Source of the DNA: a virus
Taxonomy: Duplodnaviria > Caudoviricetes
Direction: 5' to 3' (one strand)
Virus record (IMG/VR): IMGVR_UViG_3300005077_000001
Coordinates: 64,001-128,000 of that record
DNA: 64,000 nt
Part shown: piece after piece, positions 8,333 through 59,000 of the stretch
Position numbering within the stretch: position 1 is the stretch's first letter
Layout: each line of letters starts with the position of its first letter
Translations under genes and position numbers: made by a program
The notes under the pieces: model-generated
Told to the model about the DNA's origin: nothing
What the model saw: the letters and a program-made list of their open reading frames with translations, nothing else
Database searches by the model: none

Positions 8333-10969
8333 ATGAAACTTAGTGATATTTACCCACAACCAGTTTATTTAACCGAGCTTATTTCTGCAAGCGGGGTTAT
8401 TGTAAATCAAATACCTTCCCTAAATGGGTATGCTACTGAAGTTTGGGTGGCAAATGAACTGAATACTATTTCTGGCGGGGGAGATGTTACATTATCCCAA
8501 CTTATCACAACCAGTGGGGATATTATTGATCAACTTAATCAGATATCAATCAGTGGAGAGGGGCTTCCTATAGCTGTTGACCGGTCTTTATTAGTTTATG
8601 TAGATGATCATTGGGAAGGTACTACTGACGGTATATTTACTGCTTATAGTGGCAGCTTTACTCATGGGCTAACTGTAGGAACTGGCACTTTACATTTCAA
8701 TCAAGAGGGTATTGTTTTTGCTGATGGAAGTGAAATTACTGGTGCTCCTCAAGTTATTGGCGAGGAAATTTTATATGCTGTACCGAGTGGTATGGCTTGG
8801 ATTATTAAGCCATCCTCTAGACTTGCAAGGATCATCAATGATGGTGTTTTGCATGCCGGAACTCCTGGAACCGTAACTTGGTCTGGAATGCAAATTGGTT
8901 TATGGAATGGAGAAGAGTGGTCTGTTGTTACTCCACCTGCGGTTATGTACGAATTTGATGGCTCCAAAAGAGATATTGATAATAATGCATTAGAAGAAGG
9001 AACTAAGTATGATGTATATGCCAAGTATGCGTCTTCTACTGAATTTGACTTCATAATTGTTCCTTGGGATAGTACCACTTCAAGAAGAGCTGACACCTGT
9101 ATACTCCACGAGAGTACCCGTGTTTATGATTCTAGTTCTGATGGATTGAAGATGAGATTTTTAGGATCATTTACATTTGATGTGGAATACACCCCATCAT
9201 GGACTGAATGGGAACAGGAAAAGATCTATGAGCGTGGTGATATAGTAAAGCACGATGATAAATATTATGTATGTAAATGTAGGCATGCTTCTGATCCTTG
9301 GCACTCTTGGAGTTATGATACAACCTATAGTGGTGGAGATGTTGTAGTCATCACTGATGACTTAGTCGAAATATTCATATGTTTGCAGGACCATACTAGT
9401 GTCCCAGAGTCAGCAGTTTGGTGGCCGTCTGGAGGTGTCTACCAGCATTACACGCTAGGGGATTGGGTATGGTACCCACCTGAAGCGTCAGATGAGAATG
9501 AGCGTTATCTATATACTTGTATACAAGAAGAGGGAAGTTTAGAAAATCCTCCTACAGGAGAACAGACTGATAATACTTGGTGGCACTACGAACGAATACT
9601 AGTTTTGAATCCTAATCCGAGTTGTGTTAATGAGTATAACCAATTTGTCCCTAAATATGATCCACCTGTTGTGTGTGATTATTGGCAGGATATGGGGCGG
9701 TATGAAAATGAACCAGGGCTAGATACTATAAGCGATCCAGATCCTTGGGAATATTATTGGGCTCCAATAACAAATGGTAACTTCCCAATGTGGATTACTA
9801 ATAGATACATTATGAATCAGTATATAGACATAGATGTTGTACAGTATTTTCCTGCTGAGGGAACAACTCCAGTAGAATATATATCTAATACAATACTTGG
9901 ACCTCGTACTATGAATTATAAAGCACCGCAAATGCAATGTGAACGTGGTGCAGCTGTGTATCCAGGAACCTATTCAGAATCTATTTATTTACCTGCTGGA
10001 AATTATTCTGCGGCGGGAACTCTTGCGGATTCTATTTATCCTGATACATCAAACACGTCTATTCTGTGGAATTTATCAGCTAATAGTTCATTTACTTTGT
10101 TAGATGGCACTGTTGATAGCAGAACTGCTGTTGAATCTTGGTATTCAGTCTTTATGGTTGCTTCTGGTATTACAGTTTTACCGTGGTTTAGTACTTTTGG
10201 TCTAGGTGGCTTTGATGATAATGAAAATATGGCTGTTTGGGTTTACTATTTTGAACCAGAGAACGATGACTATAAAATAATTACTGAAGATGGTCAGTGG
10301 GCGGGGTATAGAGTTGTACGTCATAGTTCTGGTGTAGGAGAAGGAGCTGTGGCAACAATAGCTAGTGGTATGGTATATTATGAACATGATACCATGATTG
10401 GACCTATTGCTGGTCCTTGCTTAGCTTTAGAACCGGCAGTTGGTTGGAGTGACGATCCAGTAGATCCTTTCTCTGGTGAGGAATATATACAAATGGTACC
10501 CCCTGCAAATGTTCCTTATCTTTATTTAGGAAGTGTGCTTTGCACCTCCACCGATGGCAAGTTTCAAGCATTTTCAAAGAAGGGGAACACTTATAAGTGG
10601 GATTTTCCCATTACAATATCAGGGTACAGTGCAGAAGATGGATATTGTGGGTTAGTTAATTTTTCCAGGGCTGCTATCCCAACAGCAAAATCTTATAATT
10701 TTGCTTTAAAAATCAAATCATCTGGTGTATGTGATTATCTTGGGGTTGTGTTTGATGATTATTGGGGAGATGATGGGGTAAAATACTATTATCCTACTAA
10801 AGGGTTAGATAATCCAGAAATATCTATTCCATTTTATGGTTTTTCTTCTGATGAATGCGAGTTCACTTATTTAAGATGTATTAAATACAATGTCGATGGG
10901 GAAACTGGAGAATTAGTTGAGTCACCAGCAGATGAGTCATGGGTAATTATGACAGGATTTCAAGATTAA
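8333..10969 (+). CDS. Fibre/decoration protein with three CBM5/12-like aromatic repeats
   Basis: WEQEKIYERGDIVKHDDKYYVC, WSYDTTYSGGDVVVI, YQHYTLGDWVWYP; one QIPSLNGYATEVWV repeat; carries the IGLWNG...RFLG domain shared with three downstream genes. Confidence 0.7.
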   Translation: MKLSDIYPQPVYLTELISASGVIVNQIPSLNGYATEVWVANELNTISGGGDVTLSQLITTSGDIIDQLNQISISGEGLPIAVDRSLLVYVDDHWEGTTDGIFTAYSGSFTHGLTVGTGTLHFNQEGIVFADGSEITGAPQVIGEEILYAVPSGMAWIIKPSSRLARIINDGVLHAGTPGTVTWSGMQIGLWNGEEWSVVTPPAVMYEFDGSKRDIDNNALEEGTKYDVYAKYASSTEFDFIIVPWDSTTSRRADTCILHESTRVYDSSSDGLKMRFLGSFTFDVEYTPSWTEWEQEKIYERGDIVKHDDKYYVCKCRHASDPWHSWSYDTTYSGGDVVVITDDLVEIFICLQDHTSVPESAVWWPSGGVYQHYTLGDWVWYPPEASDENERYLYTCIQEEGSLENPPTGEQTDNTWWHYERILVLNPNPSCVNEYNQFVPKYDPPVVCDYWQDMGRYENEPGLDTISDPDPWEYYWAPITNGNFPMWITNRYIMNQYIDIDVVQYFPAEGTTPVEYISNTILGPRTMNYKAPQMQCERGAAVYPGTYSESIYLPAGNYSAAGTLADSIYPDTSNTSILWNLSANSSFTLLDGTVDSRTAVESWYSVFMVASGITVLPWFSTFGLGGFDDNENMAVWVYYFEPENDDYKIITEDGQWAGYRVVRHSSGVGEGAVATIASGMVYYEHDTMIGPIAGPCLALEPAVGWSDDPVDPFSGEEYIQMVPPANVPYLYLGSVLCTSTDGKFQAFSKKGNTYKWDFPITISGYSAEDGYCGLVNFSRAAIPTAKSYNFALKIKSSGVCDYLGVVFDDYWGDDGVKYYYPTKGLDNPEISIPFYGFSSDECEFTYLRCIKYNVDGETGELVESPADESWVIMTGFQD

Positions 10970-18936: not shown

Positions 18937-19692
18937 ATGTCAATAATTTCATCTACAATTGGTCAATCATATCCATATCAAATGTATAGAAAAAGGAAAT
19001 ATACTCAAGATGAGGATTTTTTTGATACTCCAAATATATTGAATTCTTTTATTGCTGGATTTATAGCAGCGGACGGAAATGTTAGAAGAAAAAGTGGTTC
19101 TTCAAATAATTCAACTTTATCAATTAATATATCAAAAAAAGATATAGATTATTTAAGAAACATTAAAATGATAACAAAAGCTTCTTCACCTATTACATTT
19201 AGATCTCGTTTAACTTGTTGTGGTAATGAAATTGATCTTATTGATTGGCATGTATACTCTAGAAAGTGGTTAAATGATCTAGAGAGTAATTTTGGTATTG
19301 TTGAAAATAAAAGACGTAATAGCATAGCTCCTATAAAATTGGTTGGTGAAAATCGTTTGGCTTTTATAATTGGGTATATAGATGGGGATGGTTGTATTAC
19401 CGTATTAAAGTATAAATATGGAAAAAATAAGGATTTGGTGTACAAAAGTCTTAGAATTGGTATTGCTGGTCAGGAACCGATGCTATTATGGATAAAAGAT
19501 GTTTTTGATGAGATTTGTCCACCTACTAACAAAATCTCTAATGTATTAAAACACACAGCATCAAATTCTTATGCTTATATACTAGCTGGTGAAAGAGCTA
19601 GACGGATTTATGAAATTCTTGAACCAATTAAATTACCAAAAATGGATAGAAAATGGTCTAGAACTAGACTAATTGAATTAGGAGTCTTGTAA
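18937..19692 (+). mobile_element. Free-standing LAGLIDADG homing endonuclease (no Myb-like repeats)
   Basis: FIAGFIAADGNV and FIIGYIDGDGCI; the first 16 aa resemble the start of the downstream gene. Confidence 0.85.
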
Positions 19693-24041: not shown

Positions 24042-25130
24042 TTGTTTAAGATGGAACTATCTTTAGCAGATCGACAACAGCTACTGAGAGAAACTGCTGG
24101 TACGACTCTTGAAGCACAGCTTAAGTTTCATGAGCTTGCTCAAGCTATGACAGGACCAATCCTGCAAAAGCTGGAAGAAGAGTCTATCATGCGTCAGTTA
24201 TTCACAGTAGAGAGGCTAGCGCCTGGGGCCCAGCCTGAGTATCCTGTTGCCACTGATTTCGAGACTCCAGTATGGATTCTCCCTCAGTTTGGCTATATAG
24301 CACAGAATTATGTAGAAGGTTTAGGGGAAAGTGTATTCGTTCCAACCTTTAATCTATCTGCTTCAAACAACTGGAAAGTAGATTATGCACGCGATGGTCG
24401 TATTGATATCGTCAATAAGGCTAAAGATGCAACTGCTCGTCAGTTAGCTGAAATGGAAGAAGAATGTGGTTGGCGTGTAATTGCTCCTGCCGTTACTACA
24501 AATTTTGGTGGTATGGGTATTCTTGCTCCACGTCCCGCGCCTATTTATCAGATGCCGTCTAGCGATCCCGCCAGCGGCTATCTTTCAAAAGAACTTATCA
24601 ATAGAATGATTGTTGGTATGGATCGACTTGGAAGAGAACTTAATGAATTATGGGTATCTCCTGAAGATCTCGCAGATATTCGAGAATGGACAGATACCGA
24701 TGTTGATCCTATTACTCGTAGGGAAATTTTCCAAGCAGCGGGTATGGGTAAAATCTGGAACGTAACTTTACGAAAAGTGCGTAATCTAGGTGTCAAAGGT
24801 AAGTATAATATCAATGACAAGACCTCTCTGTATGGTCCTTTCAAGGGTAAGGCTGCTGATAATACATTCAATAATTATACCGTTACAAATGGTAATATTC
24901 TTGATGTATACGGTAATCTAGATACTCCTGGTGAGACCCAGATTTATGGATTTGATGTTACATTTACTGATGCACTTGTAATGCCAGTACGTAAGGAGTA
25001 CGAACCTATTGATGATCCTGCTCTTCTAAGACAGCAGCTTCAGGGTTATTTCGGCTGGTCCACCCTCGGATTCGGCATTTTAGACAGTCGCTCAATCTGT
25101 ATGGGAATCATTGATAGGGCTACTTCCTAA
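24042..25130 (+). CDS. Major capsid protein (HK97-fold expected)
   Basis: 362 aa, strong RBS AAGGAGGAG; LFTVERLAPGAQPEYP...VFVPTF...DYARDGRIDIV pattern typical of large-phage capsid proteins; followed by a terminator. Confidence 0.8.
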   Translation: MFKMELSLADRQQLLRETAGTTLEAQLKFHELAQAMTGPILQKLEEESIMRQLFTVERLAPGAQPEYPVATDFETPVWILPQFGYIAQNYVEGLGESVFVPTFNLSASNNWKVDYARDGRIDIVNKAKDATARQLAEMEEECGWRVIAPAVTTNFGGMGILAPRPAPIYQMPSSDPASGYLSKELINRMIVGMDRLGRELNELWVSPEDLADIREWTDTDVDPITRREIFQAAGMGKIWNVTLRKVRNLGVKGKYNINDKTSLYGPFKGKAADNTFNNYTVTNGNILDVYGNLDTPGETQIYGFDVTFTDALVMPVRKEYEPIDDPALLRQQLQGYFGWSTLGFGILDSRSICMGIIDRATS

Positions 25131-25429: not shown

Positions 25430-26617
25430 ATGGCAAAGGATTGGTCAAAAAATGAAGATTTACTTTTAGAAAAAAATTGTTCTAATATGAACGATAGAGA
25501 ATTATCTATATTACTAAATAGAACTTTAAAATCTGTTAAACATAGGAGAATTAAACTAGGATTAAAAAATAATTGGAATTGTCAATCTTCGCAATTACCT
25601 TGGTCTAAGGAAGAAGATCAAATATTAATAGATAATTATAGAAAAATACCCTATAAAGAAATTATAAAACTACTACCTAATAAACGAACAGTGGGATCTT
25701 TAGAAAATAGACGTACTTATTTAATTGGCTTAATAAAGAACCCTATCTTAAGAAAATCATCTAATGACGTTTGGACTCCAGAAGAAGATGAAATAATAAT
25801 TAAGAATTATGGTAAATTAACATATGAACAGATGCTTGAATTACTGCCTAATAAAAACAGAACTGTTTTGGCATTACAGTCTAGAAAAAGTCAATTAGAA
25901 CCAGAAGCAGATCTAACAACTTTACGTAGAAATCAACGTAAACATTTTTATAACAATGCTTTTTTTGAAATACCTAATATTGTAAATTGTTATTTTGCAG
26001 GACTTTTATCGGCTGATGGGAATATTAGTAAAAACAGAGAAAATTTAGCAATAACTTTGCATCAGAAAGACAAACCTATTTTAGAAACTTTTTCTAAATG
26101 CATTGAGTATACAGGAGAAGTAGTAGACAGATATTACGAAAAACAAAATAAGTTGACTTCCAGGTTATTAATCAATGGTTGTGGTAGAGATTTAATTCCT
26201 GATTTAGAAAAACATTTCAATATAGTCCCAAAAAAATCTTTAATTTTAAAACCTCCTAATCTAAAAAATGAAGAATTAATTAAAAGTTTTATTAAAGGTT
26301 ATATAGATGGGGATGGTCATATAAACATGGATTCAAAAGGAAATGGGCAATATGCTTGGATTATATCTGTGTGTGGTACTAAAGAAATGCTTGAATGGAT
26401 TAAATTTTATTTTGATAAATGGGCTCCTAATGCATATCATAATAAATTTTCTAAAGTAAGGAAATATGATTATAACAGAATTCATCATTACTCAGTAAAT
26501 GGTAACCGTTCTATTGAAATATTAAAACAATTATGTGGAATACACAGTCCCTATCTAGAGAGAAAATGGCGTCCCTTTATGCACGAACACAATTGTTATT
26601 ACAAATTTACCTCTTAA
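25430..26617 (+). mobile_element. Free-standing LAGLIDADG homing endonuclease with three Myb/SANT-like repeats
   Basis: WSKNED, WSKEED and WTPEED repeats; YFAGLLSADGNI and FIKGYIDGDGHI. Confidence 0.85.
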
Positions 26618-26675: not shown

Positions 26676-27296
26676 ATGGGATTAATATATGAAATTATGA
26701 ATATTGTTTTTGGTAGAAAGGAAAATGGAGATTATACCCCACAACCTATTTCTGGTGGTGATTTTACAGAAGAAGATTATGATGGGGATTGGGGTGTTAA
26801 TTTACCAGACGTGGATGATGATATAGAATCCGCTGTGCATAAATATAGTAAACAATATAACGTGCCATTTCCTTTGCTTTTGGCTATAATAAAAACCGAA
26901 TCGGACTTTAGAAGAAATGCGATTCGGGAGGAACCCGCCTTTAGAAAAAGATATATTGATAATAATCCTAATTATAGAGAGTTAGATGAGGAAAGCAAAA
27001 GATTCCTTTCCTGTTCACACGGTCTAACGCAATTAATGGGCCTTACGGCTGTTGAACTTGGCTTCAGCTTTTCTGGTCCACAAGAAATTTACGATGTAAA
27101 TAACAATATAATGATTTGTGCATATTACTTACGAAAATTATGGAATAAATACAATGACTTAGAAAAGGCAGTGGCTTCCTATAATGCCGGATCTCCTAGG
27201 TACAATATGGATGGCTCCTTCGTTAATCAAAATTATGTTTCAAAAGTATTAAAATACTTTGAAATATATAAACAGCAAACAATAGCACAAGGATGA
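26676..27296 (+). CDS. Lytic transglycosylase (SLT family), probable endolysin
   Basis: LLLAIIKTESDF (catalytic Glu), HGLTQLM, NNIMICAYYL, AVASYNAG; heads the lysis cassette. Confidence 0.9.
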   Translation: MGLIYEIMNIVFGRKENGDYTPQPISGGDFTEEDYDGDWGVNLPDVDDDIESAVHKYSKQYNVPFPLLLAIIKTESDFRRNAIREEPAFRKRYIDNNPNYRELDEESKRFLSCSHGLTQLMGLTAVELGFSFSGPQEIYDVNNNIMICAYYLRKLWNKYNDLEKAVASYNAGSPRYNMDGSFVNQNYVSKVLKYFEIYKQQTIAQG

Positions 27297-28300
27297 AAAA
27301 GATGCAAGCAAACATATGGACCTCTAAAGAAATAGAGATACTTAAAAATATGTATTTTTCTGGGATAAAAAAAGACATCTTACAGCCGTTGTTAAGTAAT
27401 AGATCTTGGGATGGTATTTGTTCTAAAGCAAGGAATCTTGGTTTATCCGATAAAAAATATCCCAATTGGACAGAAGAAGAAATATCTTTTTTAAAAGAGA
27501 ATTATAAATCTTTACCTACAGAAGAAATATCAAGTATATTAAATAGAACTAGAGATGCTATAATAACTAAAGTAAATAATTTAGGAATAAGTTCTTATGC
27601 TGATAAGAAAGGTAGATACTTATTTAATCGTGATTACTTTTCTGTTTTAAATTTAGAGAGGGCATATTGGGCAGGATTTATAGCAGCAGATGGTTGTTTG
27701 TCAACTGTTGGAAATTCTATAAAACTTAGTATTAGATTAAATCGAAAAGACCATAATCACCTTGAAATGTTTAAGAAATGCATATCTCATGAAGGTCCTG
27801 TTCATAAGGGTTCTTCTTTACGTAAACAAACCACTTGTTTTTTCTCTGTTATTGAAATAAATGGTATTTTTGAATGGCAATCCGATTTATATAAAATATA
27901 TAATATTACTCCAAAAAAATCTCTGACATTAAAACCTCCTAATTTAAGAGATTCTTCTCTTATTAAAGCATTTATTATTGGTTATATTGATGGAGACGGT
28001 TATATAGGTAGAAGACATTATTATAATTATTGGAGACTTTCTATTGTAGGAACTGAAGATTTTTTAATGTTTATAGAAAGTTTCTTTAATAAGCACTATC
28101 CTTATTATAAATTAGCTCACCTAAGAAAAAATAAAAGTATTTATGAATATGATATACAGGGAAAAAGGGTTTCAACAATTTTGAGAGATCTTGCTACTAT
28201 TAAAGTTCCGCATCTTTATCGAAAATGGAATCCTGTTAAAAATGAATTACTAGATAAGGAATGGGTTGAATATATACCAGATATAAAAAAGGAGAATTAA
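27293..28300 (+). mobile_element. Free-standing LAGLIDADG homing endonuclease with two Myb/SANT-like repeats
   Basis: WTSKEI and WTEEEI repeats; YWAGFIAADGCL and FIIGYIDGDGYI; ATGA overlap with the endolysin stop. Confidence 0.85.
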
Positions 28301-29690: not shown

Positions 29691-30060
29691 TACAATAGTT
29701 ACTAAAATATGGGCAACCTACTTTAGCCAATACTACAACGTTAAGCGTGCCCATAGCGTAGGAGAGGCTTTAATAATGGTTAAAGAAAAACTTCCAGATG
29801 CTGTTATTCTAGATTTAAGGTTAAATGGTCCAGAAGATTCTGGTTTAAGTGTGTATTCTTATATAAGGAATGTTTGCCAAAGCAGTATTCCTGTTATCTT
29901 TGTTACAGGATTGGATTCAGATACTTTATTATATAAAGAAGCAGATACTATAGCTGCTGTTGATTATGAAAAAGGGATGTTTACTAAATTATTTGTAAAA
30001 CCTATAAAATTATCAACATTGGAGCCAGTAATTGAAACAATGATGTCTGAGGCGGTATGA
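29662..30060 (+). CDS. Single-domain response regulator (CheY-like receiver)
   Basis: LLIVEND acidic pocket, VILD51LRL phospho-acceptor, FVTG, FVKP. Confidence 0.9.
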   Translation: MKDLLIVENDTIVTKIWATYFSQYYNVKRAHSVGEALIMVKEKLPDAVILDLRLNGPEDSGLSVYSYIRNVCQSSIPVIFVTGLDSDTLLYKEADTIAAVDYEKGMFTKLFVKPIKLSTLEPVIETMMSEAV

Positions 30061-31502
30061 GCATAAGTGTTATTGTATCTTTAATATTTTCTATTTGTCT
30101 TCAGTCTTTTACAATTTGGTATATTTTCAAACACTTCATTGGTATGCCCAGACACACGTGGTTTTTTATAATACTCCCATCTTTTTTTATGATTTCGTTA
30201 AGACTAACTGCTATCTATTTACATTTTAATAACTATGGTCCTTTTGTTGAAGATTTTGTAATATCCCTTTTTATTATAGGTATTTCTTCTTCTCTATTAT
30301 ATAGTTATACAAAAATTAATAAATTATTTAAATCTTTATCAGGGTATGAGAATAACTTTGATGATATGGTAGAAAAACGATTTAAGAAAGAATGGGAAGA
30401 GACATTCGATTCAATTCCTGATCTGATTACTGTTTTGGATACTAATTTTACAATTTTACGTGCAAATGAAGCTGTGCTGAAGTTCCTTGACTTGACTGAA
30501 GATGAAATAGTAGGAAAGCATTGTTATGAACTAATACACGGTACTGTAAAACCTCCTGCATTTTGTCCATTTCATATGCTACTATGTACAGGAACCTCTG
30601 TACCTGTGGAGGTTAAGTTGGGTAATACTATATTTCTAGTGAGTGTGCATCCTTTTTATGATAAAAATACACTAAAAGGGGTTATACATATAGCACGGGA
30701 TGTTACAAGTTTGAAAAAAACGGAAATTGAATTGGAGAAAAAAAAGGAGGAATTATATGCTCTAAATTTAGCGAAAACTCAAGATTTATTAGATTCAGCT
30801 AGAATGTTAAATGCTGGAGTAGCTCATGAATTACGTACTCCAATGCAAGCTATAATAAATGTAATAGAGTTATTACAATCTGAATTAGTACATTGCTATG
30901 TAGAAGAAGCTAAGAGTACTATGAAAGCTTTATTGGAAGATGCAGAGATTCAATTAACTTATTCTATTGGAGTTTTAAATTCGCTATCTGCTTACGCAAA
31001 ATCTGGAGTCATGGTCGGTGTTCATTGCATTGATGTTTTTGAAGAACTAGTTGGTATAATTAAAACTTTGAGATTTGTAGATCCATTCAAGGCTTTAGAC
31101 GACGATCAATTCCATATTCAAGAACCAAGTTTTTTTAGTTGTGCAATAAAAATAAATAAATCTGACTTTAGACAAATAATTGAAAATTTATGTAAAAACT
31201 CTATTGAAGCAATAAAAGGTGTAGAGCCTAAAATATCAATTAAAGTTACTAAAGAAATAGATTTAATTAACATACACATAATAGATAACGGAGTAGGAGT
31301 TCCTGATAAATATAAAGATGATATATTTAAACCTTATTTTTCAACTAAAATAGGGAAAACACAACAGAATCAGGGTTTAGGGTTGGCTATTGTAAAAAAC
31401 CTAGTGATAAAGAACGGTGGGAATATTACATTTAATAGTCATCCTGGATATACGGAATTTATAGTTACATTTCCGTGTGCAAAAGCGGAAATAGAAGAAT
31501 AA
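30057..31502 (+). CDS. Membrane sensor histidine kinase (TM-PAS-HisKA-HATPase)
   Basis: About three N-terminal TM helices; PAS WEETFDSIPD...GKHCYELIHG...CP...ARDVT; H-box VAHELRTP; N-box NLCKNSIEA; DNGVG, FSTK and GLGLAIV boxes. Confidence 0.92.
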   Translation: MSISVIVSLIFSICLQSFTIWYIFKHFIGMPRHTWFFIILPSFFMISLRLTAIYLHFNNYGPFVEDFVISLFIIGISSSLLYSYTKINKLFKSLSGYENNFDDMVEKRFKKEWEETFDSIPDLITVLDTNFTILRANEAVLKFLDLTEDEIVGKHCYELIHGTVKPPAFCPFHMLLCTGTSVPVEVKLGNTIFLVSVHPFYDKNTLKGVIHIARDVTSLKKTEIELEKKKEELYALNLAKTQDLLDSARMLNAGVAHELRTPMQAIINVIELLQSELVHCYVEEAKSTMKALLEDAEIQLTYSIGVLNSLSAYAKSGVMVGVHCIDVFEELVGIIKTLRFVDPFKALDDDQFHIQEPSFFSCAIKINKSDFRQIIENLCKNSIEAIKGVEPKISIKVTKEIDLINIHIIDNGVGVPDKYKDDIFKPYFSTKIGKTQQNQGLGLAIVKNLVIKNGGNITFNSHPGYTEFIVTFPCAKAEIEE

Positions 31503-44000: not shown

Positions 44001-47000
44001 TATATATCATGAGCAACAGCAGAATTTAGATTTTGATGGTGATATGATAGCTCTTCATGCTGCTACATTAAAGAATACTAATGATGAGTTGGAGAAAATT
44101 AATATAGAACAAACTCTCAGAACTGGGGATACAAGGAGATTCCTATATGAAGACTTCAGCAAAGTAATGGCAGAGAAATGGTCGCTAGGTAAAAAAGGAG
44201 ATAAACCGTCTGATGAGGAGTTAGCTGTATTTAAGAATTTTGCTCCGTCTTTATCCTCCCAATGGAATTCTATGGACGTAACTCAGCAATTTACCGATAA
44301 AGCTAAAAAGGACTTATTAAAATTTCATGGTACGGATGCTCCTACTGTGGCAGAAGATGCTTTGAAACACTTTGTTCATAAGATTGATATGGGCCAAGTT
44401 TACGAACAATTTAATAGGATTGGTTTATCTTATCGTGGATTAAGTGCAGAGGAAGCTGGACTTACTCCTAAAATGAGTGAAAATTATAATCTCCTATTAG
44501 CGGAATTTTTACGCTATGTAGTACAAAAGGCTATTGGAGGTAAACATGGATCAGAAGGAGCAGATTTAGCTCCTATGGTTCAAAAAGCGTTTTTCACAGG
44601 GAATTTGGATTTTCTGGCCGGTAAAGGAAAGAATGCTCTATTTGGAGAACAAGAAGAAGCCCTTACAAAGTATAGAATGAAGTATTTGAAACCGTTGTCA
44701 CTTGCTGAATTACAAAAAGAAGCAGAATCTTATGGTATTGATCCAGGAGTAAAAAATAGAGAGCAATTAATAAAAGAGATTGTTAAAAAAACATCTTTTA
44801 GATCTATGTTTGAGAACGTATTTGATACTATCAAAAGACTTACTTTAGCAAATATACGAGAATTATATGAAAAAGGAGCTATTGGAGACATATCATTATC
44901 TAAAAAAGGTAGATTAGGGACAGCAAAGTATCTGAGTGGCCAGTATAATAAATCTATAGATGAGCTATATGATACTTTGAAAGTTTCGTTTAAAGATGGT
45001 AACTTAAATATTACAATGGGTAATAAAGATATTACCCAAGATGTTATAAACCGTGTATCAAAGGATATTGGGGTAGAGTTATCACCAAAAGAGGCTGCTT
45101 TCAGATTAGCTGCTCATGGGGAAGGGTTATACAGCGCAATTGTAGGAGAACCTGGGAAAACGCAAAAACGTATATTAGATTACGGTCCTTCAACTTCCCA
45201 ACTATCAAAAGGATTACAGCCACTTTATGTTTTGAAAAGTTCTGGTGGTGCAGACTTAGCCACAAATAGATATCTAAAATATAAACCAGGGTTTACATCT
45301 GAATATATGCCTGGAGGTCCAGAAGCTGGATATGCTGAAATAGTAGATTCTATTTTAAGAAACAGAATGGGAGCAAATATCCCAATCGACGATGCGTTGG
45401 GTACTTTCAGCAAAATAGGAGGCTCCAAAAACTTTGTAAGTCCAGTTATTAAGATATATGATGAATTTAAAGATACCTATGATAAATTAATGTCAGTAAT
45501 GACAGATGATATCTATAAAATTGAAGGGTTAACAAAACAAACTAAATCTTTTAATAGAGAAATGGATGGATTTGCAGGTAATATGGCAAAAGCGGGGGTT
45601 AAAGCATTTTATAATAAAGAAGAGAACCAATTGTATTTATCTAGTCAAATTAAATCTGATTTTGATGAATCTCTCAATAAATATGCATTAGGTAAAACAG
45701 ATAAAGAAAAAGCCGAAGCCAGGGAATCATTAAGTAAGGCTGCACAAGAAATAAAAGAAGTTCTATCTTATGCTGCAGCACATAAATACATACAAGCAAG
45801 TAATTCAGATTTAGCTAATAGTATACGTGCTAACATAACTAAATATGCTGATCCAAAATCTAATCAATCACTGAAAGTGGATACTCTTATTGAACGATTG
45901 GTTTCTTTACATCAATATACTCCTATTATTGTTAAATGGTTAGAATTAATTGGTAAACCAGAATTAGTATCTCAACCAAAAATAACTATAGCTAGAGAAT
46001 TATCTAAGCATCCACAAATAAGAAAAGAAGCTTTAGAAGAAGAAGTAGCTTCCCTGTTAAGTGGAAGTGGAGGTTTTTCCACCGGTATATATCCGTTATT
46101 TAAATACAGAAAGAAGATAAACCCATTCAACGAGCTGCTATTTGGTTTAGCTAGTAAGCAGCCTGTTCAAATGCAAGCATTTTACCCATTGACCTCAGAA
46201 TCTTGGTCAAATAAAATGTCTGATATGCAATACAATCTTAATTCTGGAGAATGGTATGATATTTTTAAGGGTCACCCTTCTTTACGTGATATAGAATTAC
46301 CTTCTGGTATGACTTCTTACAAAGATGTGTTTTCTTTTTTACGGTCAATGAAAAAATACGGGGGATCAAAAGGAGCAACTCATTATTTAAATAGCATCAT
46401 AAAAGATCGTAACAGATCTTTATTAGAGAATATGGGAATTGGCATACCTGAAGATTGGGATAAAATGAGGCTATGGGCAACAGAACCTTTGGTACAAGGT
46501 GGAATAAGCGAGGCAGCTACTACTACTAGCTGGCCTTTTTTACCATACCCTAGTAATATAAAATTACCCATAGATACTCCCACTGGAAGAGCACGTCGCA
46601 GTATTGAATCCATATATAGTAAAGCATTTGATTTATCTAGAAAAGATTGGACAAATGTATTCAAAGATTTTGATAAACCACTAGCAGATGAAATTCAATC
46701 TTTACCAAAGGATACAAATGTGATAGAACATTTACAAGATACAGGGATGTATGGGCAAAATAAAGGATACACCAGATATATAAATATGATTTTCAAACGA
46801 AGAATGGAGCAGTTACTAAAATCATTAGGCGAAGAGGTTCCTGAATTTTATGACATGCGTTTTCAAAAAGCAAAACAAGAATTTTTAAAAGTATTGGAAA
46901 ATAGAGCAAAACAAGGGAAAGGTTTTGGTTGGTTATGGGGCCCATCCACTGGAGGAACTTGGGGCGGTGATAAGTTTGGCCCTGAAGAAGCATATGGGGA

Positions 47001-50000
47001 TAATCCTCCAGCAAACATAATTAAACGTTGGCAAATGCAGTCTTTTTCTCCTGCCGATTATCCTCACATTAAACCGATATTTGATTATCCTAAATTTTTA
47101 GAGACTGATGCTGCTCTTCAATATAAGAGTCATGGACATCAGATTAAGCTTAGTGCAGTTCCATTAAGATGGGGTAATATTGAGATTGGATATGGAACTA
47201 AAAATAAACCCTTAGACCCAGATAAAGCAAATGCCATTTATAAACCTTTCATTGAACAAGTTAATGAAGAATTAGTTCCTAAGCTAAAAGATAAGGTGAA
47301 AGAAATTCATCATAGGATTGATTTATTTGGAGAATGGGGCGGTAAAAAAGATAAGCTTTTGTGGTTTGATGCAAAAATTGGAAATAAACCATTATCAGTT
47401 GATCAATTTAAAGAACTAGCTTCAAGTCTTGGTTTAAAAACTCCTGATGAATTATACCGTGGGAAAGTAACTAAGCAAATAGTAGAAGATGTATTCAGAG
47501 AAAAACCTCCATTCACAGAGTTAGAGGAAGGTGTAGTTGCTAAGGCATTAGAACGTAAAAAAGGTGATTGGTATGACATGGCAAAGTTTAAAACTAAACC
47601 ATATCTAGTGAATGAAGAAAACAGATATCCTTGGTTTGATGAGAAGTCAGCTGGTGAAAATATTGAAAGAAAAATGAAGAAAGTTTTAGATTACCAGTTA
47701 AAAGCTTTTTCCCCATTAAGAAAACCCAAGGGGACTCAATTAGAAGAGGGTATGTATCCTGAGGAATGGCCCACAATTGAAGTATCCAAAAAGAGAGCAG
47801 AACAGTATTTAAAAGGGTTAGATGATAAGTTTTATCGGCCGGCTGAAGAAGCCAGTATGTATAAAAAGGGTACTGAATTTTTAGTAAAAGCGGCTGGTTT
47901 ATCTGATATACCTTCCGTTGTAAAAGATGCTGTTGTTTTATCTCAAGAAGAATTAAAGAATAGTATCTTTGGTAAAGATATGCCAAAATTACCATATGAC
48001 CCTGTGTTGGTATTGAATACAAGAAAACAAAAACCATTATATCCTGAAGCAGTACCTATTTCTAAAGAAGCAGGTTTTATGTTTCCAGAGACTTCAGAAC
48101 CTGGACAAGTAGGTAGATTCGTGCTCCATAAGCATGACGCATTAAGGGCAGGACCTCATCATGATTTAAGATTTGAAGTAGGAGGTCAATTACAATCTTT
48201 TGCTATACCACAACTAGTTCCAACTGATAAAGGCAAAATAAGATTAGCAATTGGTCCAACTGCTCACCATTCATTAGATTACTATGAAAAAGGAGATTAC
48301 GAAATTCCAAAAGGTTTTTATGGTGCTGGACGTATGCGTACAATGGATGTTGGTACAGCTGTATTAGAAAGCTTTAAACCAGATCATATTACTGTAAAAT
48401 TAACCGGGGTAAGAGGTTTAGCTGATGGTACATATTCACTAGTAAAATTTGATCCGAAAGGAGAGAAACCTAAACAACAGCAATGGTTATTTCAAAAAAT
48501 AAGAGATATAGAAGAGAGGGACCCTGTTAGATTTGCAGAAATATATACTGATAAAGTAGAAAAAGAACAGGATAAAACTTTAAATAAATTAGGGGATAAA
48601 TACAGAGACTTTCTTTCTCCTTTGACAAAATATGAAGAAAAAACATATTCTAATTATCCCACACTAGAGTTAGATTCTTATTTCAATGCTCCTGGACAAA
48701 TGAGGGGAAGGTATTCAAAAGGGAAAATACGAACAGGAAAACCTAGAAATATGGAAGAAATGAGGGCTCTCTTAGCTACTTATGACCACGAGGTTGGTCA
48801 TGCAGCTATAGAGAAATCCTATCCTGATATCGCTGAAAATATCATGTCTGGAAAAGCTGTATTTCCTGGTGTTCATATGGATAAGATTAGAGGCTATTTT
48901 GCAGCTAAATATGGGGGCGATAGAGGAGAAGGAGAAGATCCAGCAATTAAAGCTCTAGAAGAAGCAATTGCAGGTACCAGAGAAGAAGATCAAGATATTT
49001 TAAATGAACTTAGCAAATTACGGGATGAATCTTTTGGTAAAGCTGGAATGGTACCAATAGATCCTAATGCCCTCCAAGAACTAAAATATATCAGACGTTC
49101 TTTTAGTCCCACACAAAAACAAGATTTTGCTATTACAGTAGATTTAAATGATGATAAAGGAGCCCTCTCCTCTTTGAGTTCTTCCTTACAATCATTGGTC
49201 AGGCGATCAATATCAAAAGCTTATGGGCCATATGAGTTGCATGTAGATGCAGCATCTAGAGGTAATCCTGGGCCAGCGGGAGCTGGTGGTATAATAACAA
49301 GTCCTCGCGGAGGGGTTGTAACATCTTTTAGTAAACCAATCGGTGATATGACTAACAGCATGGCTGAGTATGTAGGATTAATTTTAGGATTACAAGAAGC
49401 GTATCAAAAAGGTATTCGTAGTTTAGAAGTTATTTCTGATTCTCAATCAATGGTTAATCAACTTCTAGGTACATATAAAACTAGAAGTCAAAATATTATT
49501 CCATTAAAAGCTAGGGTAGATCAAATTTCAAGTAAGTTTGGTAATGTGGATTTCCAATGGAAACCAAGAACCTTTCTTTCGGATGCAGATAAATTAGCTA
49601 ATGAGACTTTGGATTCTGCTCACAACAAAATTAATCCTGATGATGCAGTAAAGAGAGTAAAGAATTTAATAGATACTAAACAAATAAAGACTAATGATAC
49701 TCTTTTTAAAACTGCTTATTCAAAAGATAAGTACATGGATTACTTATCAAAAGGTTTTGCTGTGGGTATGCTAGCTAATGATGATATATATATGCCTTCA
49801 GGTATAGTAGAAAAGTTTAAAAAAGATTATTCTAAAAACACTCCTGATTTACAATCAGTATCAGAAGCTATACTTCGTACCTATTCTCATGAACGAACTC
49901 ATAAAGATATAAACACTGCTCCTTCTAATATCTACCGTAAATACAAATCTTTAGCAATTGACCCTCGATATTCAAATGCAATTGAATCCTTCATACATGA

Positions 50001-53000: not shown

Positions 53001-56000
53001 TGGTATGACCGCTGGAGAAGCTGTGATGAGGGCGCTATCTAATAGTATGGGCCCACGTGGTAAAGCGTTGATGTCTGTAGTAGGCTTGATTGGAGGGGGC
53101 ATTGCAGGAGGAGCATTCGGTGGTCGTATTGGGGGGATAGCTGAGAATTTGGTATTCAAACTTTTTGGTGAAAAACCTGATGACCACCAAAAAATACAAT
53201 CTTGGAAAGATCGTAAGAAGCAACTAGAAGATGAAAAGAATTCTTTAGTAGCAGTTACTCCAGATCGAAGCTATGCTCCAGTTTCTTCATTAGAAAGACC
53301 TTGGATAACTCCAGCAGAAATAAGAGGGTCTATTGCTCCCAATTTAGTAGGAAAACCACTAGATGCTTACATTAAATCTTTTAAGCAACTACAAGCAGAA
53401 GCATCAGAAAATATCCGAACTTCAGACGTTAATAAGTCTCAAAAGGCTTTAATAAAAACTACCTCAGATTTTTATTTAAACCGAGTGATAGAATCAAGAA
53501 ATGAACTAGAAGCCGCTGAAAATAACCAGTCTCCTAAATACGTTGTAGATCAGATTAAAAAGCAGATAGATGAATACATGATTAAATACGTATCTAATGT
53601 TATTAGTGCTTCTATGACTGGGGAAATCCACCCACTATCTGACCCATATAGGGTTAAAAAAACTGGAGGATTTGTTGGCGTAGATGATGCAAAAGCTGTG
53701 GCTTTAGGTAGGTCTCCTTCATTTGAAAAAGTTGTTAACCCGGAAAATTTCTATGTATCCGGTATGAGCAATTTATCTAAAAACATTATAGGTTCTATGA
53801 GAGATTTATCAGTATCCAACATTAGTCCTAACTCTGTATACAAAGAATTGATTAATACATTATTTACTACTTCTACAGATATCCCTAAAGATCTTTCAAA
53901 TATACATGCCTATTTAAAGATGTATACCTCTGAATTAGGGAAGAACCCTAACATTGATGTAAACAGATTGAGATATTGGAAGTCCTTAGAGGAATTATTT
54001 AGAACACCAGCAAAATCTATTAGACAGTATGGTAGATTTGATTTTCAAGGATTTGGGAGTATTGAATCTAATGCTCCAGTTGAAGAATTATCTCCTACTC
54101 AAAATCGTGGATCTAAATTTTGGAGAGGAATGTCTATATTTGGGGGTGCTTTGGTTGGGGCTAATGCTCTTGGGATGAATCCATTTGTGGCTCCTGTAGG
54201 AATGGTAGCGGGCGGTATATTTGGAAATTACCTATACAATAGACATCTTGCTAAAAAACAAAAACAAGAAGAAGAAGTAGTGGATGTTCAATCTAATGCT
54301 CCAGTTTCTGATACGAGATCTTATTTGAAATTAATATTAGGAGAATTAGCAGGAGCTAGTATAGGTGGCGTTCTAGCTGCTTTAGCTTCTGGAGGTAATC
54401 CTTTATTTACCAGTTTAGGTGCTGGAGTAGGTTTGTACGCTGGTAATAAGCTTACCAAGAAATATGTAATTCCACAAGAAATGGATATTCAATCAGCGGC
54501 TCCTATAAATATGGGCGGATTGCCTATCGATATGCAGTTTAAGCAAAATCAATTAATGCTTGATTACTACAAAAAAATGATAGCATCTAGTTCTTCTATT
54601 AAAGAAGGTACTATAATACCTATTGATCTAAAAGTTAAAGATGAGGCAGGTCAAGTACTTAGTAATATACGAGCAGATTTAAAGAAAACCTCAAATAGCG
54701 CAGAGGGGGTTATTACTACTTTTACAGATTTAAATAAAGTATTAGCTCAGAAAAATACGCTATGGGGTGCAATAGAACTAACTAGCCAATATGTTGCTGC
54801 TGGTGCTGGAGTAGGAGCAGTAATTAAAGAGTTTACAAATATGATTTCTACTATCACCAGTGTAGACGCAGCAATGTATGGTTTAGCACGCCTAATGGAC
54901 CCTGCAATATCAAATTTTGATAAATTAAGATCAGTTGCATTTGAAATGTCTAAACAATATGGAACTAGTATTGTTGAAGTCATTGAATCTATGAAAGTAT
55001 ATGGTCAGCAAGGTCTAAAGCAAGCTGAAATTATTGATATGACACGAGCTTCTATAATGATGGCAAATGTATCAGAAATGAAAGCTACAGAAGTAACTGA
55101 ATTGATGACTTCTGCCACTAAACAATTTGGAGATCAAGTAAGATCTACTATGGCATTTGTTGATGCATGGGTTAAAGTTGACACTGAGCATGCTATTACT
55201 TCACAACAATTAGGACAAGCATTATTACGAGTTGGTGCGGCGGCTAAAACTGCTGGTATGTCTTTTCATGAATTAAACGGTGTTGTTACTGCTATCGGAT
55301 CTGTAACTAGACAAACAGGTAGAGAGATAGGTACTTCGTTAAGATTCATTTTACGTAATATAGAAACTTCTGCAGTTAAAAATAAATTAAGAGATCTATT
55401 TCAAATTGATACCCTGTTGCCAAGTGGTGCTATAAAACCCGCATTTGCTCTGTTAGGGGAATTACAACAAAAATGGGGCACTATAACAAACGCTGAACAA
55501 ATGAATCTTGCTCAAATGATTGCTGGTGCAAGACACTACAATGCTTTTACTGTTTTAATGAATAATTTTCAAGAAGCTTTAGAAGCTACATCAGATTCTT
55601 TAAATTCAAAAGGTGATGCAGAAAAAAGAAATTACATTTTAATGCAAAGCTTAGAGAAAAAAATGCAGCAACTTCGTGGAGCAGCTAGTGAATTATATAC
55701 TGAATTCGGTAAATTAGCATTAGGACCAATGAAGTTCATGGCTGATTCAACAAAAGCTTTGATTGAGGGTTTTACTAGTTTACCTGATTCAATAAAAACA
55801 TCAGTTATGGCAATAGGTGCATTCACTGTTTATGCATCAAAAATAGAGAGAATTACTAGTATACTTGGAGGTATTGGTGAGGCAAGTGGTCTTTCTGGTA
55901 TTGTGAATACTTTTGGCCAATTCTCTATCAGTCCTATTTCTAGCATAATATATTCTTTTGATTCATTAAAAGGTGTTAATTCCTTAAGCCAAGTTAATAC

Positions 56001-59000
56001 AACTTTAGGAAAAATGCTTTTCCTAATAAAATCAGTAGCAGATAGCTTTCTTCATGCAGGAGCTTCTGCTTTTAGCTTCGTGCATACTGCTGCTAGATTA
56101 ACTTCCCTTTTTAGTATTGGGGCTTTCATTAGTAGCGGGTTTAATCCTACAGCTTTACTTCCTCTTCTTGTAACTAGAGGACCTGTACTCGGTTGGGGTG
56201 CTAGAAGGATGTCTAATCTGATGAATCAAGGTACTGAGGGGATACTAGAAAAAGTCTCTTCTCCTACTGGGTTATTAGGCATTGGCTTAACTTATGTCTT
56301 AACTAGGTTAGCAGGTTTAAATACTGGTATGCTAAGTAGAGAAGGGATGGGTATTGGTGATACTATTAAACAACTATTCATTGGACCAGAAGCTGAATTA
56401 AATAGATACAAAGAGCAAACTGTTCAAATAGGGGGAGCTTCTACTCGCATATCTTATCTAAGTGATGTGCTTAAATCTTATACTGCTCTCAAAGGTCAAT
56501 ACAAGTCTTTATCTGAAATAGGTGTAAAGTTAGGGACTCCTGAAGGCATTACTTCTGAGGCCGAGCGAACATTATCATCTTTTGGGGAAGAAACTGGATT
56601 TAAACCATACATGGTTCGCTTATATGAGTTTAATAAACTACAAGAGGAAGCTAAGAGAAAAGCTGGTTCTTTGATTCCTTCTTTAGTATCTGGATTTGAT
56701 TTGTTTGGTAATTCTATACTTCAAGTTAATAAAAATTTCCGTACTAACATAGAATCTATGGATGAGCTACTAAAGAAAATACAAGACTTTGAAAAGATAC
56801 ACCTTGCCGGATTACAAATAGATAAACTATTCCCCGAAGCCAGCTTTGGACAAACATTTAGAAATACTTTAAAAGGACTAGTTGGAACTTTACCTTTTAT
56901 GGGAGAAACTTGGGCTGAGAAAATATTCCCCGCTACACCATACCAAAAACAGCAATCTATTTTGAAAGATATATCACGTTATCAGGGTATGCAGAATGCT
57001 GCATTAGCGACTGGATTACCTGTGCCTCCTTTTATCACTGATACTTTAAAAAATCTTAATAATAAGTTAAAAATGGTTAATTCAGAATTAGATTCGGAAT
57101 TAGCAAAGATTAAAGATACTATTGCTGATCTTAATGTGAAGACTCCTAAAGAGGTACTATCCGTATTATCAGATACTAAATTCGGGAAATATTTAGAAGT
57201 ATATGGTGGAAGAAATATGGATGTGCTTAATGCGGTGGCTGGATATAGAGGTATTTCTACACGGGATCTACAGAAGCAGCTAGTTCAGGATACTACAAAG
57301 TATGAATATATGCATATTGATAAACAGCCTGGTATTGCAAGTATCTTATCATTTCCTGCTTTCTACGGATTTTCTAGAATTCTATCTAAAGTTGTAGAGC
57401 ATTTTACTTCTCTTTCACTAGCTTCTTCTAATTTAGGAAAAGCTCTATTGCTTGCAACATCTGCAGCCGCAAGTTACCATTTTTTTGGAACACCTGAACA
57501 TTATTCATTAATGAAAAGTAGACCAACAGTTGAAGATACTTTAACTCCAGCAATTAATAATGTTAAAAATTTATTACCGTATATTACAGCTATTGGAACA
57601 TACAAAGCATTAGGAGCTATAGGCGGAGGTGGAGGAACAATACCTCAAAGGATTGTGGGAGGATTAGCGAGATTAGGGGTATCCTACTATATGTATGGGG
57701 TGGGAGGGAGATTAGCAGAAGGGATACCAAATCTACCTACAGAATCAGATAGAGTAAGAGGTATTAAAAATGAAATAGCGCAACGTCAGGCTTGGGAATT
57801 AGCAATGGGTAAATTAGGTATTGCTAAAGAAGCCATATATGGGCCTCCAGGTACTTTAGGGGCTATGCTGCCATTAAATGTTATTGCTGCTCAAAACCCA
57901 CTAGGCAGGTATGCTGTTCGTACAACTGCTCTGAATGAAGAAGATAGAAAATTAGCTGAAAAAAGAATGTTTTCTGGTCCTGGTTGGAATGGTGGAGCCT
58001 ACGGGGTAGGTGCCGGATGGGTAGGCAAAGTATTAGAAGAAGAACTAAATAAGCTGTCAGGAGTATCTGAGGGTGATGTTGTCATGATGGCAGAACTCAC
58101 TGATGTGGCTAAGAAGAGAGAGAATATTGTAAATAATTTACTACCACTAATTTATAGACGTAATAAAGCAGGTGAAGTAGTTCCTACCGTACAAGCTCAA
58201 AGGGAAGGTGAAATTCAAGCTTCAGAAATACAAATAAAACCAGAAGATTTAAAATTTCTATATTCACGTGGCCCAGGAGCAGCAGTTGATATGCGTACGG
58301 CATATGATCAGTTGAGGCGTACCTTAATTGGTGGTGCTGGTGCTGGGAAATACTGGACTCTAAGTGGAGCAGAGAAATTACAAATGGGGGTAGATTTTAT
58401 TTGGCAAGTACATGGATATGACAAGGCTATCACAAATCTATCAAAAACTTCATTAGTTATACATGAAATAGAAAAACAATTACAGGCTTTTTCTAAAGAA
58501 CAAATAGAAACAGCTCGGGCTCAAAACGATTTAAACAAAGTAATGGACGTAATTTTTGAGCATCGCAAATTGACATTCTTAGTTAGAATGAACCAAGAAT
58601 GGGAGAACTTAAAGAACACTATTGGTGAAATAGATTTTAAACGTCAAATGAGCGATGTTGATGAGTTTGCTACTATGCTAGAAAAAAGAGCTGCTATTGG
58701 ATTAAAAAGCATTTCGGCTGGCTTACCTCCTCAGGTTCCAATGGTAGCAAGTTGGAGTCAACTATCTCCAGAAGAACAAAAGTCTGTTCTAAGTCCAGAG
58801 TATACAGGCACAGCAAAATTAGCATGGGAAGTACAAAAATATCAAACTGATACAGCAGCAAAACTAAGAGCTACTCTAAGAACTGAACAAACAGGGGTTG
58901 CTTTATATGAGCAATTGAAAGAGGATTTAGGGCCTAATCTGAATGTGGCATTAAGTGGTAGAACTAGAAGAGCCCTCCAAAGTGATTTTGGTAGTAAAGT

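Follow-up and report, generated by a model that had tools for sequence, protein, structure and literature searches.

A stretch of 64,000 nucleotides (hereafter the window; bases 64001-128000 of the IMG/VR virus contig IMGVR_UViG_3300005077_000001, which is 256,335 bp long and, by estimate, ~97% complete) contains the start of a giant open reading frame (ORF) of 12,315 amino acids (aa). Within this ORF, an RNA ligase, a LigD-type 3'-phosphoesterase (PE) and an RNase H are neighboring domains of a single jumbo-phage tape-measure protein. The ORF accounts for ~14% of the genome; it does not reach a stop within the window, and the frame closes only at genome position 138997. A sequence-only reading of this DNA had reported three end-processing enzymes at 47053-49614. 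All three score above the Pfam cut-offs and are intact, but they are domains of one ORF rather than a gene cluster. An ASCH/PUA-like domain between the ligase and the PE is an addition to the three originally noted. The giant ORF and the components of the enzyme block are (window coordinates):

38050 to 64000, continuing to 74997 (genome 102050-138997), plus strand: giant ORF, 12,315 aa with 2 cysteines, enclosing all domains of the block
47107 to 47649 (aa ~3020-3200), plus strand: Rnl2-like RNA ligase nucleotidyltransferase domain (Pfam, motifs and structure matches)
47761 to 48030 (aa 3238-3327), plus strand: ASCH/PUA-like small beta-barrel domain (structure match), always contiguous with the PE in relatives
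48112 to 48549 (aa 3355-3500), plus strand: LigD-type PE domain (Pfam, solved PE domains and residues)
49234 to 49614 (aa 3729-3855), plus strand: type 1 RNase H domain (RVT_3/RNase_H and catalytic residues)

The ligase domain matches RNA_ligase (PF09414) over aa 3026-3180 (window ~47125-47589) with 33.2 bits against a gathering cut-off of 27 (E 6.9e-8), and with 39.4 bits in a six-frame search of the genome; two relatives score 37.8 and 41.4 bits. In a manual alignment with T4 Rnl2 (reference sequence from NC_000866), motif I KSHG (K3026, H3028) corresponds to KIHG (K35, H37), motif III LFGEWGG (E3095) to VFGEFAG (E99), motif IIIa WFDA (D3107) to VFDI (F119, D120), motif IV EGVVAK (E3160, K3165) to EGYVLK (E204, K209), and motif V AKFKTK (K3179/K3181/K3183) to IKCK (K225, K227). 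All five motifs are invariant across five lineages. AlphaFold2, given five sequences, modelled aa 3000-3345 poorly overall (predicted local distance difference test, pLDDT, 57), and only the first half of the ligase is confidently modelled; its closest match is T4 Rnl2 (Z 8.8 over 101 residues), followed by NgrRnl (Z 7.6) and REL1 (7.4), with T4 Rnl1 weaker at 5.1. The model tentatively places the ligase closest to the nick-sealing enzymes (T4 Rnl2, NgrRnl, REL1), not to Rnl1. Ligases of the Rnl2 type join nicks in a duplex where the 3'-OH belongs to RNA. By its ESM Atlas features, the ligase segment groups with viral clusters of PF09414, and T4_Rnl2_C is present in some of these. Alignment of the ligase family with T4 Rnl2 by hhalign recovered motif III only, and neither a PDB sequence search nor a word-index search with the ligase domain alone produced a match. 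The C-terminal domain of Rnl2 (PF18043) had no Pfam match, and the ASCH/PUA-like domain follows the ligase instead.

This ASCH-like domain is confidently modelled within the same aa 3000-3345 model and best matches YqfB (Z 9.3, root-mean-square deviation 2.4 A over 87 of 102 residues), with further structural matches to PH0355 and ZmASCH. An ESM Atlas search with the ASCH-like piece, and with the zincin-like pieces described below, returned no usable match. Domains with the ASCH/PUA-like fold typically bind RNA.

Members of the PE family remove 3'-phosphates and also resect 3'-ribonucleotides. The PE domain matches LigD_N (PF13298) over aa 3360-3465 (window ~48127-48444; 54.5 bits against a cut-off of 31.1, E 1.5e-14) and the solved PE domains 3p43 (3.4e-14) and 3n9b, from Pseudomonas LigD (1.3e-12), in the PDB. 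HMMER and family alignments equate H3362, H3370, D3372, R3374, H3407 and Y3411 with H42, H48, D50, R52, H84 and Y88 of Pseudomonas LigD, all six of which are important for both activities (PMC3300020); these residues are invariant in five relatives. The position of Glu82, which is required for the 3'-phosphatase activity but dispensable for the removal of 3'-ribonucleosides (PMC3300020, PMC8656161), is occupied by Ala3405, and that of Gln40 by His3360, both invariant in every member (five relatives). The domain scores 68.2 bits against the cut-off of 144 for the NCBIfam equivalog domain TIGR02777. By this score, the PE is a divergent member of the superfamily and not an orthologue of the LigD domain.

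The RNase H domain matches RVT_3 (PF13456) over aa 3732-3852 (77.8 bits against a cut-off of 21.6, E 8.5e-22), with RNase_H (PF00075) alongside, and retains the catalytic DEDD residues D3733, E3773, D3797 and D3847. Among solved structures, it is closest to the N-terminal domain of Rv2228c (PDB 3hst, 1.4e-24), followed by Halobacterium RNase HI; matches to the NCBIfam families for RNase H/acid phosphatase and for Halobacterium RNase HI remained below the equivalog cut-offs. RNase H cuts RNA in hybrids, and its substrate must include a DNA strand.

The linkage of the three domains, on which the sequence-only reading depended, holds across homologs. Metagenomes were scanned for relatives with a clean PE alignment as the query, and the order ligase, PE, RNase H is kept in all relatives that cover the region. 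One of the relatives is G001, a 545,322-bp IMG/VR record (100% complete according to CheckV) with a 14,712-aa frame (C1:288398-332533, minus strand) that is 46% identical to the giant ORF, almost gap-free over aa 1-3851, with RNA_ligase, LigD_N and RNase H all above cut-off in the identical order. P0003, a 6,667-aa protein ended by a contig edge, has the identical ligase-PE-RNase H order; its ligase is preceded by two copies of a PcnB/CCA-like nucleotidyltransferase and followed by a kinase-like insert. The fragments L005/L006, L007, L009 and L010 cover parts of the block with the order unchanged; at least five metagenome fragments carry the ordered block or parts of it. In L005/L006 (ENA ERZ25039603 contig_78987) and L010 (ENA ERZ25039509 contig_115276), the giant frame is split into overlapping pieces that lie in different reading frames, probably by assembly indels, and, due to these breaks, gene callers list the ligase, PE and RNase H as separate proteins. 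In L010, a DUF3175 insert separates the ligase from the ASCH-like domain; this fragment retains ligase-ASCH-PE, but the similarity stops after the PE, so that it is uninformative on RNase H. The G+C content of L010 is 50%, and its final 900 bases show no relationship to the family.

The distant homolog P0154 (5,915 aa, 23-28% identical) combines the polymerase-like region and the tape-measure core, described below, with none of the three domains. The block has therefore accreted within a single sub-lineage, at a place between the polymerase-like region and the tape-measure core. As its carriers form one small clade, the constant order is mostly inherited and does not constitute independent evidence. 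The trio was not found outside this protein family in a search of 1.84 billion proteins, in which the best 150 matches were RNase H proteins or fragments of the family, and the multi-stretch matches among these 150 were tandem RNase H repeats. Searching GenBank phages gave only one weak RNase H match, a scan of GTDB genomes only an ordinary actinomycete LigD, and no public sequencing runs holding the block were listed.

Identity to G001 is 66% in the ligase, 67% in the ASCH-like domain, 64% in the PE, 53% in the first spacer (see below) and 43% in RNase H, the least conserved of the three enzymes, compared with 46% overall and 23-30% in the linkers (23% in the linker before RNase H). No catalytic residue of the three domains varies among relatives whose overall identity is 45-60%.

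Several features of the genome bear on what the block could do. The possibility that the domains are separate genes or internal transcription units was rejected: the frame is unbroken, and promoter-like sites (20 found, 25.4 expected) and terminator-like sites (5 found, 4.4 expected) are not enriched within the block and therefore do not point to separately transcribed units. An antisense ORF of 147 aa at 47594-48037 (minus strand), within the coding region of the ligase and ASCH-like domain, is unsupported and probably spurious. Pfam searches detected no other RNA_ligase copy and no ATP- or NAD-dependent DNA ligase in this genome; PF01068, the ATP-dependent DNA ligase family, was absent from the Pfam searches of both this genome and G001. 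G001 encodes an NAD-dependent DNA ligase and keeps the embedded ligase nonetheless. A second RNase H is encoded in this genome by a standalone gene beyond the window (genome 252895-253278, minus strand; RVT_3, 39.3 bits) and is only 22% identical to the embedded domain. Given this second RNase H and the NAD-dependent ligase of G001, the embedded copies are not simply replication enzymes, and the idea that the block mainly serves as the phage's only replicative DNA ligase or RNase H was rejected. P-loop kinase (AAA_33) matches are confined to small separate ORFs, with none within the giant frame. No tRNA genes were found in the window; four are located elsewhere in the genome (Met, Asn, Leu-UAA and Lys-UUU).

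The block lies between a polymerase-like region and a tape-measure core, and is accompanied by spacers with HExxH motifs:

44029 to 44043 (aa 1994-1998), plus strand: DFDGD motif of a putative two-barrel virion RNA polymerase, invariant in three relatives
46939 to 47025 (aa 2964-2992), plus strand: conserved Gly/Trp-rich junction motif, core WGG..FGP.EA[YF]G, just before the ligase
48730 to 48984 (aa 3561-3645), plus strand: zincin-like spacer 1, with HEVGH at aa 3580-3584 and a Glu ~57 residues downstream
49837 to 49929, plus strand: second HExxH (HERTH, aa 3947), after RNase H, a possible second zincin-like spacer
54631 to 57099 (aa ~5528-6350), plus strand: tape-measure core (PhageMin_Tail and PHROG tape-measure families)

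The tape-measure core is identified by PhageMin_Tail (PF10145; aa 5630-5826, 94.7 bits, and 102.7 bits in a second search) and by 12 PHROG tape-measure families, the best at 2.9e-76; upstream of the core, at aa 4222, 5006 and 5428, are hydrophobic segments rich in Gly. The polymerase-like region is marked by DFDGD, which is invariant in the giant ORF, P0003 and P0154, with a weak Pfam Rpb1_2 match (13.5 bits) around NLDFDGD (aa 1991-2017). Searches with this region gave no tblastn match in GenBank phages, and a PDB profile search gave RPB1 only at E 0.58. The block had been described as lying just downstream of an RNA polymerase; a polymerase-like motif is indeed present upstream, but ~1,000 aa from the ligase, and its assignment combines a motif with analogy.

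In spacer 1, the HExGH motif and the downstream Glu are conserved in four relatives, and the HERTH region resembles this spacer weakly, around the motif only. The AlphaFold2 model of spacer 1, of moderate confidence (pLDDT 63), had neither a zincin match nor any other informative match of fold, and neither Pfam nor ESM Atlas gave any match. A third HExxH (HEINH) occurs at aa 9801, beyond the window. The pattern fits the zincin-like peptidases known from polyvalent proteins (PMC5512222).

The junction motif (WGG..FGP.EA[YF]G.N.P.NI) is a hot spot, after which relatives carry differing extra domains, and in L005 (10400-11300) two copies flank a 235-aa insert; the motif may serve as a linker or be a site of processing. 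The C-terminal third of the giant ORF contains a kinase-like segment (aa 9925-10023, a weak ABC1 match) and a nucleotidyltransferase-like segment with GGGVRD..DYD (aa 10250-10328), which lie together with HEINH in L002:3148-5550 and are homologous to the inserts adjoining the ligase in P0003. For the last 3,665 aa of the protein, Pfam gave nothing at E 0.1.

The amino acid composition bears on how the block might reach the cell. Only 2 of the 12,315 residues of the giant ORF are cysteines, and the counts are similarly low in G001 (2 of 14,712), P0003 (0 of 6,667) and P0154 (0 of 5,915), against 1.63% cysteine in the remaining ORFs of this genome (binomial p ~3e-84 for the giant ORF). The two cysteines of the giant ORF are adjacent (aa 8975-8976). 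Cysteine avoidance, which is common to the enzyme domains, fits a virion-delivered protein: cysteine is nearly absent from the enzymes too, and these would therefore travel with the exported structural protein. With a tape-measure core in the same protein, it is plausible, by analogy, that the enzymes of the block are delivered with the phage DNA at infection. A tape measure is present in few copies per virion.

One of the closest known parallels is gp96 of Thermus phage P23-45 (10.1101/2022.12.01.518664 = PMC10770324). This tape measure is 5,002 aa long, and experiments have established that its N-terminal portion is an active virion RNA polymerase of the two-barrel kind; its authors suggest that small folded domains are strung together like a caterpillar inside the tail channel (PMC10770324). 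Both gp96 and the giant ORF are giant tape measures with an N-terminal DFDGD region (in the giant ORF a putative polymerase), metallopeptidase-like HExxH motifs and hydrophobic segments. However, the giant ORF has no detectable sequence similarity to gp96, is 2.5 times longer, contains at least five extra enzyme-type domains, and has a ligase, a PE and an RNase H, none of which is mentioned in the gp96 paper (PMC10770324). The carriers of 12,315 and 14,712 aa far exceed the P23-45 tape measure, the largest in the literature consulted, and their size raises questions about tail length and the passage of folded enzymes through the tail. At the P23-45 ratio (5,002 aa per ~800-nm tail), the tails would be ~2 micrometres long, unless only part of the chain measures length.

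The second parallel is with the polyvalent proteins surveyed by Iyer et al. in 2017 (PMC5512222). These proteins, like the giant ORF, combine many unrelated enzyme domains in one polypeptide that is presumed to be co-delivered with DNA, and their interspersed HExxH zincin-like domains, the possible counterparts of the HExxH spacers here, are presumed processing proteases. In the passages searched, the survey notes that 2H phosphoesterase versions were never encountered alongside RNA ligases, and it makes no mention of 'RNase H' (PMC5512222). The giant ORF differs from polyvalent proteins in that the host protein is a tape measure.

With bacterial LigD/Ku, the block shares the PE family, with all six essential residues, and what would be a common logic, namely, a ribonucleotide-adding enzyme, a trimmer of 3'-ribonucleotides and a ligase that prefers an RNA 3'-OH (PMC3300020, PMC8656161). 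It differs in having an Rnl2-like ligase, in the replacement of Glu82 and Gln40, in the addition of RNase H, and in that Ku was not found in this genome or G001. A primase-polymerase-type domain was not recognised in the giant protein, for which no search aimed at such a domain was made.

The ligase shares with T4 Rnl2, Naegleria NgrRnl and trypanosome REL1 motifs I, III, IIIa, IV and V and the KxHG form of motif I, and has its best structural matches among them, but is shorter (~180 aa) and lacks the Rnl2 C-terminal and NgrRnl N-terminal domains; in their place, it is followed by the ASCH/PUA-like domain, and relatives have insertions between these two. As in T4 Pnkp plus Rnl1 and in fungal Trl1, an end-healing enzyme occurs together with a ligase, and the ligase, kinase-like, PE order of P0003 recalls the ligase, kinase, phosphodiesterase order of Trl1. 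Unlike these systems, the block has no P-loop kinase and no HAD or 2H healing domain, its PE is of the LigD type, and it sits in a structural protein. In jumbo phages, RNA repair has been described through separate Rnl1, Rnl2 and RtcB genes together with kinases, phosphoesterases and nucleotidyltransferases (PMC7824862). Tape-measure-fused polymerases and polyvalent injected proteins are already known. Our literature searches turned up no description of a tape measure that contains a conserved block of ligase, PUA-like domain, LigD phosphoesterase and RNase H, and what is new here is a polyvalent tape measure with a putative virion polymerase that bears a previously undescribed enzyme block.

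Our preferred, albeit tentative, interpretation is that the block is enzymatic cargo of a tape-measure/virion-RNA-polymerase polyprotein and acts in cis, on the entering genome and on the RNA:DNA hybrids of the polymerase. By analogy with the known families, the enzyme set suits RNA-terminated nicks and RNA:DNA hybrids. A few copies of the block would enter the cell together with the phage DNA. RNase HI would then clear R-loops behind an anchored polymerase that is unable to rotate, the LigD-type PE would trim 3'-ribonucleotide tails on the duplex to a ligatable 3'-OH, and the Rnl2-like ligase, aided by its PUA-like neighbor, would seal nicks with RNA on the 3'-OH side, so that the incoming genome, or RNA paired with it, becomes continuous again. 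The HExxH spacers may split the chain into separate enzymes after delivery. We infer these steps from the known chemistry of the families, and delivery, substrates and order of action are likewise deduced. Cis action is favored because a few molecules per virion would suit a target that is itself a single molecule, for example the incoming genome or R-loops of the polymerase itself. A PE without Glu82, a ligase nearest to the nick-sealing type and the need of RNase H for DNA jointly lean towards a duplex or hybrid substrate in cis.

Cis action joins the 'patch, trim, seal' scheme of the sequence-only reading with the R-loop clearing that was part of its second proposal. That scheme gains from the conservation of the block as an intact unit and from plausible delivery at infection, but end joining after Cas9 or restriction cuts, which it included, is unsupported given the failure to find Ku and the probable nick-sealing class of the ligase. 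To our knowledge, nick-sealing ligases alone do not join double-strand ends.

A number of points weigh against the cis interpretation. The poor ligase model (pLDDT 57) leaves the class assignment soft, the putative polymerase is assigned from one invariant motif plus analogy, and the model of spacer 1 (pLDDT 63) did not confirm a zincin fold for the candidate spacers. That the part of the chain bearing the block enters the cytoplasm is something we infer. Neither Ku (PF02735) in this genome or G001 nor a LigD polymerase was detected. The CCA/poly(A)-polymerase-type and kinase-like domains of the relatives and the ASCH/PUA-like domain are more typical of RNA-directed work. Furthermore, the protein is also made late and in bulk and could act before assembly, which weakens the argument from copy number.

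These RNA-directed features are central to the alternative that we consider possible but less probable than cis action, namely, counter-defence by RNA healing and sealing. Here, the PE and the ligase would mend tRNA or mRNA cut by anticodon nucleases or abortive-infection RNases, the CCA/poly(A)-type and kinase-like domains would assist, and RNase H would serve the polymerase only. Rnl2-family ligases and phosphoesterases are indeed standard parts of phage RNA repair (PMC7824862). In P0003, the two PcnB/CCA-like copies precede the ligase and the kinase-like insert comes just after it, with the homologous segments of the giant ORF at aa 9925-10023 and 10250-10328. The fold of the ASCH/PUA-like domain, typically an RNA-binding one, and the genome's own tRNA-Lys(UUU), Asn, Leu and Met genes are also consistent with such repair. 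However, the few molecules brought by a virion would probably be insufficient for a bulk tRNA pool, the giant protein contains no P-loop polynucleotide kinase, its kinase-like segments being only weak and of the ABC1/ePK type, and the Glu82 position, which 3'-phosphatase activity requires, is Ala in all members. In addition, the ligase resembles nick-sealing enzymes more than tRNA-loop ligases of the Rnl1 type, and we know of no RNA-repair pathway in which RNase H has a role. Thus, of the second proposal of the sequence-only reading, R-loop clearing has been taken into the favored interpretation, whereas repair of tRNA and mRNA in bulk is held less likely.

A bolder version of the repair idea, which we regard as doubtful and place below RNA healing and sealing, is a tail-delivered 'ribo-patch' DNA repair machine, a LigD analogue built from different parts that mends nicks or staggered cuts before any phage gene expression. 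The two-barrel polymerase and/or a Pol-beta-type nucleotidyltransferase would add ribonucleotides, the resection-tuned PE would trim them, the Rnl2-like ligase would seal the RNA-terminated nick, and RNase H would later remove the patch. Were this the case, the virion would carry resistance to host nucleases through repair rather than avoidance. An improbable option is a role at the start of replication, where RNase H would cut the transcripts of the fused polymerase into primers and the leftover RNA ends would be trimmed and sealed. ColE1 plasmid replication initiates from primers made by RNase H, the block adjoins the polymerase-like region, and no DNA ligase is detectable in this genome; yet a second, standalone RNase H is present for replication, G001 keeps the embedded ligase despite an NAD-dependent ligase of its own, and nothing ties the block to a replication origin. 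Still less probable is the destruction or alteration of host RNA:DNA hybrids (retron msDNA, products of defence reverse transcriptases or crRNA R-loops), followed by modification of the ends. Polyvalent injected proteins often carry anti-defence enzymes (PMC5512222), and the closest matches of the RNase H clade include many multi-copy RNase H proteins (best 150 matches). Nonetheless, no specific tie to any defence system was found, RNase H is the least conserved of the three domains (43%), and the ligase and PE would be without a clear role. The least probable explanation by far is that the captured domains are mere spacers that add length to the tape measure and are non-enzymatic. Tape-measure length itself matters and the domains are minimal in size, but all catalytic residues are kept in every relative, and conservation is far higher in the enzyme domains than in the linkers.

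If the block does act on the entering genome, as favored here, it would represent a new first-minute function of phages, with repair or maintenance enzymes carried in the tail, and the first natural setting that links a LigD-type PE with an Rnl2-type ligase. The block also supplies minimal, cysteine-free versions of three useful nucleic-acid enzymes.

The genes that neighbor the giant ORF are all on the same strand and comprise a phage structural module, in which the only family match is the major head protein (24042-25130). Amid this module, there are four LAGLIDADG-like ORFs (1339-2448, 18937-19692, 25430-26617 and 27293-28300; motifs GFIAADG... and GYIDGDG), which are probably homing endonucleases. 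The same structural region includes an ORF of 481 aa (30057-31502) with membrane segments, an H-box-like AHELRTP motif and an ATPase-like GLGLAIV motif, which resembles a sensor histidine kinase. Beyond the window, at genome 158761-181691 (L003, L004), there are three more very large ORFs; those of 2,414 and 2,242 aa have no Pfam match, and the 1,568-aa ORF contains concanavalin-like lectin domains.

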